From a virus (lineage: Duplodnaviria > Heunggongvirae > Uroviricota > Caudoviricetes): DNA of 11,484 nucleotides. The position numbers were made by a program, and so were the translations under genes. The stretch lies in IMG/VR virus record IMGVR_UViG_2778261514_000009; one strand, 5' to 3'. How positions within the stretch are numbered: the stretch's first letter is position 1; every line of letters begins with the position of its first letter. Shown here piece after piece: positions 1,583 to 5,691 of the stretch. Below the pieces are notes generated by a model that worked only from the letters and a program-made list of their open reading frames with translations, was not told the DNA's origin and ran no database searches.

Positions 1583-1771
1583 GTGTTAAGCACTGATCGG
1601 TTTATACGTGAAAAAGAATGCGAAAAACTAACCGGCCTTAGCCGTACGTGTCGCTACCGCCTGGAAAAGGCCGGACAATTCCCATCACGTCGTAAACTTG
1701 GCGGTCGTTCCGTTGGCTGGTCTTTATCCGAGGTTCTGGCCTGGAAGGATAGCTGCAAGGCAGTTCATTAA
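1583..1771 (+). CDS. alpA: AlpA-family transcriptional regulator / excisionase-like HTH protein (62 aa, GTG start)
   Basis: Pattern TGLSRTCRYRLEKAGQFP...LGGRSVGWSLSEVLAW matches the AlpA (Phage_AlpA) family; SD AAGGGGG lies 6 nt upstream of GTG at 1583. Confidence 0.85.
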   Translation: MLSTDRFIREKECEKLTGLSRTCRYRLEKAGQFPSRRKLGGRSVGWSLSEVLAWKDSCKAVH

Positions 1772-2148: not shown

Positions 2149-2322
2149 TCAGTCTGGTTCAGTTCGTTGCCATACCTGCAATGAGCGCTTTTCCCTGTAC
2201 TCTTTAAGGAATTGCTCAAGGGCAAAAGCACATGGCGCGAATCTTTCTGATTCATGCTCTATCTTTCTGCGCCGTCTTTTCCGTGCCGGTGATAATGTTT
2301 TGGTCAATTCTTTATCGGTCAT
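2149..2322 (-). CDS. Small highly basic hypothetical protein (57 aa from ATG at 2322; alternative start 2337)
   Basis: ORF track 2149..2337(-); internal ATG has AGGA 8 nt upstream; contains RKRRRRK basic tract; lies 57 bp downstream of the RHH gene and upstream of the terminator. Confidence 0.35.
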   Translation of the reverse strand: MTDKELTKTLSPARKRRRRKIEHESERFAPCAFALEQFLKEYREKRSLQVWQRTEPD

Positions 2323-2379
2323 TGTGTTGTCCTGCATAGCAATGCGCCGTAATACCTCACACCACGGCGCTGATAGTGA

Positions 2380-2559
2380 TTATTCTGATTCTTTGGCCTT
2401 GCGGCGCTGGCGGCGTTTGATCTCGCCTTCAAGTGCCGAAACGATAAATTGCCCTGTACTTTCGCCATCTTCCTTTAAATTTTCTACAGCATCAGCTATT
2501 GCGTGTGGTACTCGAGCCTCAAGCTTTTTGGATTTTGCATTAACTGCTTTTGTTGCCAT
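2380..2559 (-). CDS. Ribbon-helix-helix (CopG/Arc-like) DNA-binding protein, 59 aa
   Basis: Internal ATG of track ORF 2380..2700(-) with SD GAGGAAA 6 nt upstream; sequence KKLEARVPHAIADAVENLKEDGESTGQFIVSALEGEIKRR fits the strand-helix-helix pattern; faces a divergent promoter/operator region. Confidence 0.5.
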   Translation of the reverse strand: MATKAVNAKSKKLEARVPHAIADAVENLKEDGESTGQFIVSALEGEIKRRQRRKAKESE

Positions 2560-2580
2560 ATCTGATTTCCTCGTTATTAG

Positions 2581-2662
2581 GTGGCTGACAGTATACACAC
2601 AAGAAAACGGAAAAACACTATTGACGTGGCTGACACCCGTTACTAATATAGTGGCTGACACC
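2581..2662. promoter_or_regulatory. Divergent promoter/operator region: sigma70-like TTGACG-17-TAATAT (2621-2649, + direction) overlapped by three direct repeats of GTGGCTGACA
   Basis: Repeats at 2581-2590, 2626-2635 and 2651-2660; the second overlaps the -35/spacer and the third sits at the predicted start site; located between the minus-strand RHH gene and the plus-strand operon. Confidence 0.45.
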
Positions 2663-2753
2663 TTTGTCAAGGTAATCGATGAAAAGACAAAGCCCCGCAA
2701 GTGTCGTTACCACTCGCAGGGCTTCTAACCAACAACGTAAACTAGGAGCCGTT

Positions 2754-2954
2754 ATGGTTGCTGTAAATCATATACCACACCTTGTACACACACAAACGGC
2801 CTTTGTGTGGCGTTTTCTGGCACTGAGTGCCGGAGAATCTCAAATCATCCACGTAACCGCCTGGACGGAACGCGAAGCGCGTAGCCGTTGCCCGTCCGGT
2901 TGTGTTGCTGTATTCGCCGCCCGTATTCGTCAGGAGGTGTGCCATGTGCAATAA
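2754..2954 (+). CDS. Hypothetical small protein (66 aa), first gene of the replication-module operon; possibly Icd-like
   Basis: Internal ATG of track ORF 2679..2954 with SD AGGAG 6 nt upstream; the Icd-like resemblance is from memory only and unverified. Confidence 0.45.
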   Translation: MVAVNHIPHLVHTQTAFVWRFLALSAGESQIIHVTAWTEREARSRCPSGCVAVFAARIRQEVCHVQ

Positions 2955-3183
2955 AACCACACCGGACGCAGCCGCCGCCGCGCTCACTACGCTAATGCAT
3001 GCGCTGATTGATATTTCTGTTATTGCTGACAGGGCGCATAAGCACGCCACCAATGAAACAGAATATGCCGGGGCTTTCGTTCCTCATTCGCTGGCGGTTA
3101 TGCAACTTAGTGCTGATATGGCGCTGAATGAGGCTAAAGCCATCCTGATTGCTGATTGTGAAAATGGGGGTGGTTATGCGTGA
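2944..3183 (+). CDS. Hypothetical small protein (79 aa)
   Basis: ATG at 2944 with SD AGGAGG 7 nt upstream; start overlaps the previous stop (translational coupling). Confidence 0.45.
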   Translation: MCNKTTPDAAAAALTTLMHALIDISVIADRAHKHATNETEYAGAFVPHSLAVMQLSADMALNEAKAILIADCENGGGYA

Positions 3184-3409
3184 TGATCGTTTTAATTCCC
3201 TGAAACAGGAATTTTCCGGCGTTCCTGATGATGCGGCTGATGCGCTTTCGTCAATGCCAGAGCTTATTAGAGCGGCTTTTTTCTTACTTTCCACGAGAGA
3301 ATATAAATCAACGGGGCTTGATGTACTGAATATCGCCGCCGATTATGCGGAATATGTGGCAGAGGCGCATTACAGAAGAAAATTTCCTGAGGATGTAAGC
3401 CATGCGTGA
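3176..3409 (+). CDS. Hypothetical small protein (77 aa)
   Basis: ATG at 3176 preceded by GGGGGTGG; overlaps the upstream stop at 3181-3183; the track's TTG start at 3149 is less likely. Confidence 0.45.
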   Translation: MRDDRFNSLKQEFSGVPDDAADALSSMPELIRAAFFLLSTREYKSTGLDVLNIAADYAEYVAEAHYRRKFPEDVSHA

Positions 3410-3635
3410 TATTTACCACGAAACAATAGACCGCGCATTTCTTGCACTTTCTCACAGTGAAAACATGCTGGAAATATTGCGCATATGGCTTGAAACACTT
3501 GGCGACAATGAACGCGACAAACAAAAATCAAGAATTGCCACGGCATTAATAACGCTTCTTGAGCCTGTAATAATGGAACTGCAAGAAATAGATCTATTGC
3601 ACGACAGATATAAAGAACAGCACACCGGAGAATAA
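3402..3635 (+). CDS. Hypothetical small protein (77 aa)
   Basis: ATG at 3402 with GAGGA upstream; overlaps the previous gene's 3' end by 8 nt. Confidence 0.5.
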   Translation: MRDIYHETIDRAFLALSHSENMLEILRIWLETLGDNERDKQKSRIATALITLLEPVIMELQEIDLLHDRYKEQHTGE

Positions 3636-3640
3636 AAATA

Positions 3641-3940
3641 ATGAAACTTAAATATTCTGGCTTAACTGCCAGTGGCAACACTCACCCTAAATTTACGCGC
3701 GGTGATATTTACCGCGACCAGTACGGCGGCACGGTAATGATTAAGGGCGTGGAAGAACGGCGCGTAACCTACCGCCGTGAAGGCTACGAATATGACTGCG
3801 TGATGCCTGTTTATCAGTTCCGGCGTGATTTTTCTCTGGTACAGGCAGCGCCCCGCAGTAAACCAACCAGCAGGGAGAAAGCACGCGCCAATATTCAGGA
3901 AATAAAAAAGATACTTAACGTATTCAGGGGTAAAAAATGA
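3641..3940 (+). CDS. Hypothetical protein (99 aa) immediately upstream of and overlapping the primase gene
   Basis: ATG at 3641 with GGAG upstream; its stop overlaps the primase start (ATGA at 3937-3940). Confidence 0.5.
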   Translation: MKLKYSGLTASGNTHPKFTRGDIYRDQYGGTVMIKGVEERRVTYRREGYEYDCVMPVYQFRRDFSLVQAAPRSKPTSREKARANIQEIKKILNVFRGKK

Positions 3941-5691
3941 AACTGGCACCGAACGTAAAACAGCAGTCACGCGGCATAAAACACAAAGAAACAGAAGTCA
4001 TTATTTTTGCGGGTAGTGATGCCTGGTCACACGCGAAACAATGGCAGGAACATGATGCGCGTATGGCCGGAGATAATGAGCCTCCTGTGTGGCTTGGGGA
4101 GCAGCAGCTATCCGAACTGGATAATCTGCAAATTGTGCCGGAAGGCCGAAAATCAGCACGCATATACAGGGCCGGATATCTTGCGCCAGTAATGATAAAG
4201 GCGATTGGCCAGAAGCTGGCGGCGGCAGGCGTACAGGATGCAAATTTTTACCCTGATGGTATGCACGGTCAGAAGGTGGAGAACTGGCGCGAATATCTGG
4301 CCCGTGAGCGCCAGAATCTTTCTGATGGTCTGGTCATTGAGCTTCCGGTAAAGCAAAAGGCGCAACTTTCGCAGATGGCGGACAGTGAGCGCGCGCAGCT
4401 GCTTGCCGATCGCTTTGATGGCGTTTGCGTACATCCTGAAAGTGAAATCGTTCACGTATGGCGCGGCGGGGTATGGTGTCCGGTCAGCACAATGGAACTT
4501 AGCCGCGAAATGGTGGCGATCTATTCAGAGCACAGGGCCACTTTCAGCAAGCGCGTAATCAATAACGCCGTGGAAGCGTTAAAAGTTATTGCCGAACCAA
4601 TGGGCGAGCCGTCCGGCGATTTGCTGCCGTTCGCCAATGGTGCGCTTGACCTGAAAACGGGGGAATTTTCCCCGCACACGCCGGAGAACTGGATCACCAC
4701 GCACAACGGCATTGAGTACACGCCACCAGCACCAGGGGAGAACATCCGCGATAACGCGCCAAACTTTCATAAATGGCTTGAGCACGCAGCCGGAAAAGAC
4801 CCGCGCAAGATGATGCGTATATGTGCCGCGCTGTACATGATTATGGCGAACCGGTACGACTGGCAGATGTTTATTGAGGCCACCGGAGATGGCGGGAGCG
4901 GTAAAAGTACATTCACGCACATAGCCAGCCTTCTGGCAGGGAAACAGAACACGGTAAGCGCTGAAATGACGTCGCTTGATGATGCTGGTGGACGTGCGCA
5001 GGTTGTCGGGAGTCGTCTTATCGTCCTGGCTGACCAGCCGAAATATACAGGCGAAGGAACGGGCATCAAGAAAATCACGGGCGGTGACCCCGTGGAAATT
5101 AACCCGAAATACGAAAAGCGTTTCACGGCTGTAATCAGGGCGGTGGTGCTGGCGACCAACAATAACCCGATGATATTCACCGAACGGGCCGGAGGTGTGG
5201 CACGTCGTCGCGTGATTTTCCGTTTCGACAATATCGTCAGTGAGGCCGACAAAGACAGGGAGCTACCGGAAAAGATCGCGGCTGAAATCCCTGTCATTAT
5301 CCGCCGATTGCTGGCGAACTTTACCGACCCTGAGAAGGCACGGGCTTTACTACTGGAACAGCGTGACGGTGATGAAGCTCTGGCAATAAAGCAACAGACG
5401 GATCCGGTTATTGAGTTTTGCCAGTTCCTGAATTTTCTGGAGGAAGCACGCGGCCTGATGATGGGCGGCGGTGGCGATTCAGTGAAGTACACGACCAGAA
5501 ACAGCCTTTACCGCGTCTATCTGGCGTTTATGGCGTACGCAGGCAGGAGCAAACCGCTAAACGTAAATGACTTTGGCAAGGCTATGAAGCCAGCCGCGAA
5601 AGTTTACGGACATGAATATATTACGCGGAAAGTTAAGGGAGTAACGCAGACTAACGCAATAACAACAGACGAGTGCGACGCGTTTTTATAA
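3937..5691 (+). CDS. pri: Replication initiation primase/helicase (D5_N plus SF3-type P-loop NTPase; P4-family primase C-terminal region), 584 aa
   Basis: Walker A GDGGSGKST, the downstream hydrophobic strand with acidic residue (LIVLADQP) and the characteristic ...VEINPKYEKRFTAVIRAVVLATNNNP...RRRVIFRF block; followed directly by an iteron region, as in PICI pri-rep/ori modules. Confidence 0.88.
   Translation: MKLAPNVKQQSRGIKHKETEVIIFAGSDAWSHAKQWQEHDARMAGDNEPPVWLGEQQLSELDNLQIVPEGRKSARIYRAGYLAPVMIKAIGQKLAAAGVQDANFYPDGMHGQKVENWREYLARERQNLSDGLVIELPVKQKAQLSQMADSERAQLLADRFDGVCVHPESEIVHVWRGGVWCPVSTMELSREMVAIYSEHRATFSKRVINNAVEALKVIAEPMGEPSGDLLPFANGALDLKTGEFSPHTPENWITTHNGIEYTPPAPGENIRDNAPNFHKWLEHAAGKDPRKMMRICAALYMIMANRYDWQMFIEATGDGGSGKSTFTHIASLLAGKQNTVSAEMTSLDDAGGRAQVVGSRLIVLADQPKYTGEGTGIKKITGGDPVEINPKYEKRFTAVIRAVVLATNNNPMIFTERAGGVARRRVIFRFDNIVSEADKDRELPEKIAAEIPVIIRRLLANFTDPEKARALLLEQRDGDEALAIKQQTDPVIEFCQFLNFLEEARGLMMGGGGDSVKYTTRNSLYRVYLAFMAYAGRSKPLNVNDFGKAMKPAAKVYGHEYITRKVKGVTQTNAITTDECDAFL

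Follow-up and report, generated by a model that had tools for sequence, protein, structure and literature searches.

Positions 2754 to 3940 of an 11,484-nucleotide stretch of viral DNA (Caudoviricetes; IMG/VR record IMGVR_UViG_2778261514_000009), which we call the window, hold five small open reading frames (ORFs) that share one orientation and run into the gene for a P4-type primase. The finding is real, and these are not five unknowns: they form a further copy of a widespread operon that belongs to a known family of phage satellites, the phage-inducible chromosomal islands (PICIs). Two of the five genes are recognisable, and one of these, rgdR, has been studied experimentally. The genes are as follows (aa, amino acids; pI, isoelectric point).

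2754..2954, plus strand: ORF1, Icd-family, 66 aa, ATG start; heads the coupled operon
2944..3183, plus strand: ORF2, 79 aa, pI 5.0, ATG start
3176..3409, plus strand: ORF3, 77 aa, pI 4.8, ATG start
3402..3635, plus strand: ORF4, 77 aa, pI 5.0, ATG start
3641..3940, plus strand: ORF5, RgdR orthologue, 99 aa, pI 10.1, ATG start

A first-pass annotation of the window had described these five ORFs, with individual Shine-Dalgarno (SD) sequences and overlapping stop and start codons, as a coupled operon upstream of the primase of a satellite. The junctions and the gene content of the island bear this out, with one amendment. Three of the four internal junctions do overlap, by 11 nucleotides (nt) between ORF1 and ORF2 and by 8 nt, in the identical sequence ATGCGTGA, at both ORF2/ORF3 and ORF3/ORF4; the stop of ORF5 likewise overlaps the start of the primase gene by 4 nt (ATGA). 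ORF4 and ORF5, however, are 5 nt apart. Every start has a good SD site: the predicted duplex with the anti-SD sequence ranges from -6.4 to -11.6 kcal/mol at six starts (the five ORFs and the primase), against a median of -3.0 kcal/mol for all 243 ATG triplets of the window, 23% of which reach -5.

The same annotation had staked the genes on the conservation of their reading frames in related elements, and there the five frames are intact in the loci that we examined. Pairwise comparisons of these loci give ratios of nonsynonymous to synonymous polymorphism (pN/pS) of about 0.1-0.4 for the most part, with a few noisier pairs at 0.5-2.1, and identical copies of the proteins are recorded on 62 to at least 1000 contigs. 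Since the frames are conserved and pN/pS is mostly well below 1, we take all five genes to be real, and ORF2, ORF3 and ORF4 appear to be under purifying selection. Listings of homologues are dominated by near-identical Escherichia coli sequences and add little depth to this picture.

Comparison across islands separates a constant frame from a variable centre. Constant are the divergent YlcI/YnfO gene, the Icd-like gene in first place, and a terminal block made of ORF4, a gene with the DUF4222 domain (ORF5 in the window) and a replicase gene. The middle of the operon holds one to five different small genes, and by the distance between the Icd-like gene and ORF4 the loci form three classes, of about 430-450, 660-690 and 810-1100 nt. 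The DUF4222 stop overlaps the next start in 66 of 70 loci, that start belonging to a P4-type primase in 24 and to a RepA helicase in 42.

By its gene content and site of insertion, the window is a Gram-negative PICI of the EcCICFT073 type, integrated in tqsA. The island is about 11.3 kb long, is bounded by the two halves of tqsA and has mostly co-directional genes, encoding an integrase, AlpA, a P4-type primase, a single-stranded DNA-binding protein (SSB), a PerC-family regulator, a major capsid protein, a decoration protein and TerS. The hallmarks of PICIs are present, namely int and alpA at the left end and a primase/replication module, and the size fits the usual range of about 10-15 kb. 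Its early region is homologous to those of experimentally validated PICIs, the same operon being found in EcCICFT073 of strain CFT073, in the tqsA island of E. coli 042 and in Sp7 of the O157:H7 strain Sakai (OI-51/CP-933C, of the cf-PICI type). By likeness to EcCICFT073-type PICIs, induction, replication and transfer of the island would depend on a helper phage. The genes that frame the operon are the following.

1-1218: int
1583..1771, plus strand: alpA, AlpA-family regulator (Pfam Phage_AlpA, 5.4e-17)
3937..5691, plus strand: P4-type primase with D5_N, DUF5906 and Pox_D5 domains; ATGA overlap with the ORF5 stop

AlpA is the helper-induced activator in EcCICFT073 (PMC6092414). The same work names int, alpA and pri-rep as essential and reports RgdR from all E. 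coli PICIs analysed; the remaining small early genes are not covered by its description (PMC6092414).

The operon is common in E. coli. The island of strain STEC17-183 carries the stretch from 2300 to 4100 with 99.9% identity, and a match to this stretch, rgdR included, occurs in about a third of complete E. coli genomes (1686 of 5426); 1074 of the complete genomes counted carry the ORF2-ORF3 cassette. In contrast, searches of 50,697 phage records by megablast and tblastn returned no match at all for the region, for ORF4 or for ORF2-ORF3, four weak matches for ORF5 and one for ORF1.

Families of the five proteins

According to the first-pass annotation, none of the five proteins matched a family that could be recognised with confidence. 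Profile searches overturn this for ORF1 and ORF5, which pass the NCBIfam Icd-like model and the Pfam DUF4222 model, respectively, and leave ORF2, ORF3 and ORF4 without an informative match.

ORF1 scores 64.6 bits on the Icd-like model NF033153 (E = 6e-18; cut-off 25), on which the Icd protein of phage P1 itself scores 52.6 bits. A direct BLASTP comparison of ORF1 with P1 Icd gives 41% identity over 46 aa (E = 2e-7), and the Sakai protein ECs1577 is 97% identical to ORF1. By these matches ORF1 is an Icd-family protein, and by analogy with P1 Icd it may inhibit cell division. Over the whole phage collection, tblastn with ORF1 did not reach P1 Icd at E <= 0.01, and a PDB sequence search gave nothing significant. 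No C4, isrK or CI RNA was detected by Rfam across the whole window at E <= 1, the only match being a chance one to a snoRNA.

The DNA of the second half of ORF1 (2841-2940) is almost 100% identical in all loci compared, including those with a far more divergent first half; the conserved part could be a recombination joint or a cis-acting site. Three further candidates around this gene were rejected. A longer ORF1 starting at 2679 is excluded because leader length differs by 2 nt between classes, which breaks the frame. A terminator-like hairpin inside ORF1 (2789-2809) is non-complementary in the L007 allele and is probably a by-product of the coding sequence, and an antisense promoter within ORF1 was a weak match made by eye that is not conserved.

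ORF5 matches Pfam DUF4222 (PF13973) over residues 16-68 with 85.7 bits against a cut-off of 27 (E = 1.6e-24). The protein is 99 aa long and shares 92% of its residues with ECs1581 (RgdR) and 81% with C1493; the RGD motif (R20-G21-D22) and K35, which are named in the study of RgdR (PMC3378721), are conserved. By this similarity ORF5 is RgdR. Both ECs1581 and C1493 raise type III secretion and lower motility, and ECs1581 binds DNA non-specifically (PMC3378721). An AlphaFold2 model of ORF5 (mean predicted local distance difference test, pLDDT, 73.7; core 86-89) folds residues 23-68 into an SH3/Tudor-like barrel of five strands, with a basic helix (77-95) after it. Fold likeness of the core to the Tudor-like domains that bind RNA polymerase (the UvrD/PcrA C-terminal domain and the CarD/Mfd RID) was considered. 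The top Foldseek matches of the model are the KOW domains of Spt5, with an E-value of about 0.03; an ORF5 sequence search against PDB gave no signal for a Tudor/KOW relation, and small barrels are a very common fold. We regard a Tudor/KOW-like core as a lead given by the model rather than as membership of a family. This lead would fit a role at RNA polymerase or in non-specific DNA binding, and also the coupling of the gene to a helicase or primase gene.

Proteins with DUF4222 also occur in the early-left regions of prophages, since a lambdoid prophage of CFT073 encodes a shorter one, of 79 aa and 23% identical to ORF5 (L010 20192-20431, minus strand), beside excisionase and integrase genes.

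ORF4 matches phrog_2196 (E = 8.4e-42). It has 528 homologues, and the 120 of them that are listed are 92-100% identical; identity is 90% to the CFT073 homologue and 24% to Sakai ECs1580. A conserved motif, L-x-D/N-N-E-R-D, marks the family, and the gene stands directly upstream of the DUF4222 gene wherever both are found. A PDB sequence search with ORF4 gave nothing significant, and one scan of genome contigs with ORF4 as the query yielded a single locus. ORF3 and ORF4 were considered as paralogues, both being 77 aa long and starting with MRD, and this was dropped for want of BLASTP similarity.

Sequence comparison shows that ORF2 and ORF3 each correspond to one half of a gene that other islands carry in fused form. 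The 154 positions of phrog_2512 are shared out between them, 1-76 matching ORF2 and 78-154 matching ORF3; further matches are to phrog_5146 for ORF2 and to phrog_24341 for ORF3. All PHROG matches of ORF2, ORF3 and ORF4 are to families of unknown function. The fused form is a single protein of 155 aa in E. coli 042 and of 150-155 aa across related islands. Values of pN/pS are 0.18-0.33 for ORF2 and 0.1-0.4 for ORF3, except in one comparison (L003, 0.90).

The AlphaFold2 model of fused ORF2-3 is all-helical and of modest quality (pLDDT 70.5), with two ORF2 helices (9-37 and 42-73) forming a hairpin. Foldseek with this model against PDB returned only generic helical bundles (E > 1), and a PDB sequence search with the fused protein gave nothing significant. 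The family is narrow, since HMMER searches of a whole library of 1.84 billion representatives with fused ORF2-3 found only 50 clusters. Other gene fusions are seen elsewhere (P0153, P0323, P0339, P0061): ORF3 with an unrelated 119-aa N-terminal domain (P0153 and P0323), an Icd-like protein with ORF2, and ORF2-ORF3 with the tail of ORF4. ORF3 may act with whatever lies just upstream, since its N-terminal partner varies.

Whether the two halves are fused or split depends on a run of guanines at their junction. In relatives this is a pure run of G7 to G12 that sets the state (L002 6060; L004-L008; L012-L096), for instance G10 in E. coli 042; the window has an interrupted form instead, and not the unbroken homopolymer of 7 or more bases that would be expected of a phase-variable (slipped-strand) contingency locus.

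3166..3173, plus strand: interrupted G tract GGGGGTGG at the ORF2/ORF3 junction, doubling as the SD site of ORF3

A census of tract lengths in 85 IMG/VR contigs, ranging from G7 to G11, gave the following distribution, in which about one-third of the contigs are fused and two-thirds split.

G7: 23 contigs, fused
G8: 34 contigs, and 3 more with the interrupted form of the window, split
G9: 18 contigs, split, in the other frame
G10: 4 contigs, fused
G11: 3 contigs, one of them interrupted (GGGGGGGGTGG), split

Tract length varies within 7 of 11 groups whose flanks are identical over 200 nt on each side. It follows that either the tract evolves at a far higher rate than the DNA around it, or it attracts sequencing errors. 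ORF3 has its own ATG and SD site in both split and fused forms.

Promoter repeats and the divergent YlcI/YnfO gene

Upstream of the operon the first-pass annotation had placed a promoter with triple operator repeats, and we find the same: a sigma-70-like promoter and three exact copies of GTGGCTGACA. Together with the divergent gene they are laid out as follows.

2621..2649, plus strand: sigma-70-like operon promoter, TTGACG (2621-2626), 17 nt, TAATAT (2644-2649)
2581..2590: operator-like repeat O1, GTGGCTGACA, within the leader of ylcI and about 21 nt before its ATG
2626..2635: operator-like repeat O2, GTGGCTGACA, covering the last base of the -35 element and the spacer
2651..2660: operator-like repeat O3, GTGGCTGACA, beginning 2 nt past the -10 element, over the expected transcription start
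2380..2559, minus strand: YlcI/YnfO-family gene, 59 aa, divergent from the operon (NCBIfam NF041551)

With up to one mismatch allowed, GTGGCTGACA occurs 4 times in the window against 0.54 expected. The product of the divergent gene matches NF041551 with 60.6 bits (1.1e-16; cut-off 30) and has weak PHROG matches to Arc-like repressors (E = 0.09-0.34).

The repeats change from island to island together with this gene. There are at least five YlcI/YnfO alleles, each with its own repeat of 10-11 nt in the intergenic region between ylcI and icd (L005, L007, L008, L010, L011). Five aligned leaders, falling into three operator/leader classes, have an invariant -35 element, TTGACG, and carry repeat copies at the same three positions in all three classes; the position of O1 is shared by all 10 loci found with the YlcI allele of the window. 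The alleles, named by residues 11-14 of the protein, and their repeats are these.

KKLE (the window): GTGGCTGACA, three copies, in 10 of 10 loci
QSVT: GTGTAAGACA, third copy inverted (the L005/L007 class)
QTVA: GTGTT(C/T)AACAC
QMTT: GGTGTATTTCA
QALK (CFT073): GTGGGCCACAC

Both GTGTAAGACA and GTGTTCAACAC are operator versions that go with other YlcI alleles than that of the window. The repeats behave like operators in that they co-vary with the alleles of the neighbouring regulator, and the YlcI/YnfO protein is a candidate satellite repressor because the repeats change with its alleles. As O2 lies in the spacer and O3 over the expected start, binding at these sites should repress the operon. 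Differences between the alleles cluster where the DNA-reading strand would lie if the protein has a ribbon-helix-helix fold.

The place of ylcI is taken in Sakai Sp7 by an ORF of 63 aa that lacks annotation (L011 22175-22366, minus strand) and gives weak matches of TraJ, RelB, MobA and YlcI type; it has a repeat of its own, AGTGGTCACCT, which overlaps a TTGACA.

A leftward promoter was also recognised by eye (TTGACA at 2670-2665, 16 nt, TATTAG). It faces the rightward promoter of the operon, the two having their -10 region in common, and O3 lies in its spacer. The leader of the operon itself contains a further feature.

2689..2725: 5' leader hairpin, kept in three leader classes with differing inner stems

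The run of T residues of this hairpin is on the minus-strand side, as in a terminator of leftward transcripts antisense to the ribosome-binding site of the Icd-like gene; no convincing antisense promoter for such transcripts was found.

Downstream of ylcI, an ORF of 62 aa (2149-2337, minus strand) is identical in Sakai Sp7 and is present in 50 of 85 IMG/VR loci with a median identity of 98%. No family matches it, and it is probably transcribed together with ylcI. In a near-identical genome (L001 8530-9429, corresponding to 1829-2728 of the window, plus strand), the Prokaryotic Genome Annotation Pipeline (PGAP) reports a hypothetical protein of 299 aa in place of ylcI. Read from the strand opposite to ylcI and the 62-aa ORF and covering both, this frame matches no family, and in E. 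coli 042 it is a pseudogene. It is probably an erroneous call, one that masks the regulator. In the same region a minus-strand ORF of 84 aa (2001-2255) weakly resembles the CHC2 zinc finger of DnaG type, scoring 20 bits where the cut-off is 24.9 (E = 6e-4), and may be a gene remnant.

Possible roles of the operon

What could such an operon do for the island? In the best explanation, which we consider probable, it is the early operon of an EcCICFT073/EcCIO42-type PICI, set between the alpA/YlcI switch and the replication genes. In the quiescent island, the YlcI/YnfO protein would bind three GTG-N5-CAC-type sites over the spacer and the start and hold the operon off. Once a helper phage switches on alpA, the operon would be expressed as one coupled message, from which the Icd-type protein would be made first, then the cassette proteins and then RgdR with the replicase. 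The Icd-like protein would stall cell division. The acidic ORF2 and ORF3, probably as a complex, and ORF4 would act on host or helper targets, while RgdR, as a small basic barrel protein, would bind DNA non-specifically and either modulate transcription or assist the coupled replicase.

Several points weigh against this scheme. Cell-division inhibition has been demonstrated for P1 Icd only, with which ORF1 has 41% identity over 46 residues. YlcI binding and operon expression in this island are deduced from the DNA, and profile searches with YlcI against PDB sequences and Pfam were empty, its ribbon-helix-helix fold being putative. ORF2, ORF3 and ORF4 have no match in Pfam, NCBIfam or PADLOC, nor do fused ORF2-3 and ORF4 have a sequence match in PDB. 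The differences in G-tract length could in part be homopolymer sequencing errors. A part for RgdR in the life cycle of the satellite is suggested by the gene layout, and the phenotypes of RgdR come from plasmid expression in enterohaemorrhagic and uropathogenic E. coli (PMC3378721). In published work AlpA is an activator and a repressor was not found (PMC6092414), and the literature that we searched describes no repressor of the YlcI type for Gram-negative PICIs.

A bolder version of the scheme would make the YlcI/YnfO type, with its three allele-specific sites, the hitherto undescribed master repressor of Gram-negative PICIs and their immunity switch, in no fewer than five heteroimmune classes. 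It would control a division inhibitor, a variable cassette that senses phage triggers and includes the gene fused or split by a hypermutable G tract, and an RNA-polymerase-binding, Tudor-like RgdR. We offer it as a speculation, and a rather unlikely one.

ORF4 and RgdR, possibly with ORF2 and ORF3, might on the other hand be accessory replication factors for the primase or helicase, for example cofactors in origin binding, loading or coupling to RNA polymerase, the virulence effects of RgdR being a side effect. The non-specific DNA binding of RgdR (PMC3378721) would suit this role, as would the constancy of the 3' block of ORF4, DUF4222 gene and replicase gene and the overlap of the ORF5 stop with the start of either type of replicase (P4-type primase in 24 and RepA helicase in 42 of the 70 loci). 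Yet in EcCICFT073 pri-rep alone is the named replication function (PMC6092414), and we find the proposal doubtful.

A little less credit goes to the idea, put forward in the first-pass annotation, that the small proteins sense or interfere with the helper; here ORF2, ORF3 and perhaps ORF4 would be helper- or phage-sensing or interference factors leading to activation of the island or to growth arrest. The interval between the Icd-like gene and ORF4 is indeed a cassette region with distance classes, the middle genes of Sakai are unrelated to ORF2 and ORF3, and ORF2-ORF4 are absent from the 50,697 phage records. Indirect experimental support, for this idea as well as for the early-operon reading, comes from strain ECOR61, in which transposon insertions in two small ORFs and in the Icd-like gene suppress an arrest that phage Orf24 triggers and that requires all six linked genes, the primase among them (bioRxiv 10.1101/2023.04.06.535777). 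These insertions could, however, be polar on downstream genes, and the ECOR61 block, compared by gene size, matches that of Sakai, in which the middle genes bear no relation to ORF2 and ORF3. Furthermore, none of the five proteins is homologous to a known satellite interference protein or defence system (no PADLOC hit at E <= 1), and the island is without a known helper. We judge this role unlikely for the genes of the window.

It is more unlikely still that the block is a toxin-antitoxin or abortive-infection module, with an Icd-like toxin neutralised by an acidic protein encoded downstream. The partners downstream of the Icd-like gene are indeed small and acidic, growth suffers when EcCICFT073 is induced without control (PMC6092414), and Silas et al. 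regard the Icd-like protein as a likely effector of programmed cell death (bioRxiv 10.1101/2023.04.06.535777); but PADLOC found no such system, the operon runs without a break into the replication genes, and the regulator is separate and divergent with operators of its own.

That ORF2-ORF4 are decaying or spurious frames is largely refuted and hardly credible: a PGAP 'frameshifted' flag on split ORF2/3 in one locus and matched families all of unknown function would be in keeping with it, whereas none of the frames is broken in the loci examined, pN/pS is mostly 0.1-0.4, the SD sites are strong, identical proteins occur on hundreds to thousands of contigs, and split and fused forms both retain the ATG and SD site of ORF3.

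If the genes are the early operon of a PICI, as we think probable, its allele-specific operator sets and variable G tract are points of more interest than the operon itself. New here are the co-variation of the repeats with YlcI, the fusion and splitting of ORF2-ORF3 through the G tract, and the Tudor/KOW-like model of RgdR. The co-variation of regulator and repeats gives a concrete candidate for the silencing of Gram-negative PICIs, which the 2018 description of these islands left open. RgdR influences type III secretion and motility as well as the colonisation of ruminants by O157:H7, and the position of its gene, at the end of a conserved satellite early operon and coupled to that of the replicase, casts its native role in a new light. 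ORF2, ORF3 and ORF4, the three genes of the operon that are still without a known function, are common in E. coli, were found here only in such islands and are absent from the 50,697 phage records, which makes them targets for a deletion study.

Relation to known systems

The closest relatives are EcCICFT073 and EcCIO42. With them the window shares the divergent YlcI/YnfO gene, the Icd-like gene, the small ORFs, the ORF4 homologue (77 aa, 90% identity), the DUF4222 gene (C1493, 81%) and the primase and, further downstream, the genes for SSB, PerC, capsid and decoration proteins. In E. coli 042 the island occupies the same tqsA site; it differs in its fused ORF2-3, in an extra gene of 70 aa and in a RepA helicase that takes the place of the primase. 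In CFT073 the operator is GTGGGCCACAC and there are four small genes between the Icd-like and DUF4222 genes, three of them before the ORF4 homologue, where the window has two.

The Sakai Sp7 genes ECs1577-ECs1582, of the cf-PICI EcCIEDL933 type, are those in which RgdR was defined. The Icd-like protein (97% identity) and RgdR (92%) are shared, as is the coupled order ending in the primase. However, ECs1578 and ECs1579 are unrelated to ORF2 and ORF3, ECs1580 has only 24% identity to ORF4, the divergent regulator is of 63 aa with the repeat AGTGGTCACCT, and Sp7 has a full capsid and packaging set.

The six-gene 'superinfection exclusion' block of ECOR61 and the P4-like AlpA-Icd-primase block of ECOR15, both from Silas et al., are likewise composed of an Icd-like gene, small overlapping ORFs and a primase, and expression of a phage accessory protein leads the ECOR61 block to arrest growth (bioRxiv 10.1101/2023.04.06.535777). 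In ECOR61 the Icd-like protein has a long N-terminal extension and the small ORFs have the sizes of those in Sakai, the comparison being one of size and not of sequence.

The immI region of P1 (c4 - icd - ant1/ant2) also begins with a short Icd gene, which has an ATGA overlap onto ant1; expression of ant1 depends on translation of icd, because the icd stop overlaps the next start. It differs in that no C4-type antisense RNA was detected in the window and the downstream genes are not homologues of Ant; control in the window appears, from the sequence, to be exerted by a protein at DNA repeats. The island can also be compared with the small-repressor switches of temperate phages that have repeated operators, such as Arc/Mnt of P22 and the face-to-face promoters of the P2/186 type. 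The fold and the DNA binding of the YlcI/YnfO protein are putative, but here as there a small divergent regulator is combined with repeats in the spacer and start region of a promoter, and the allele-specific operators of the island resemble immunity classes.

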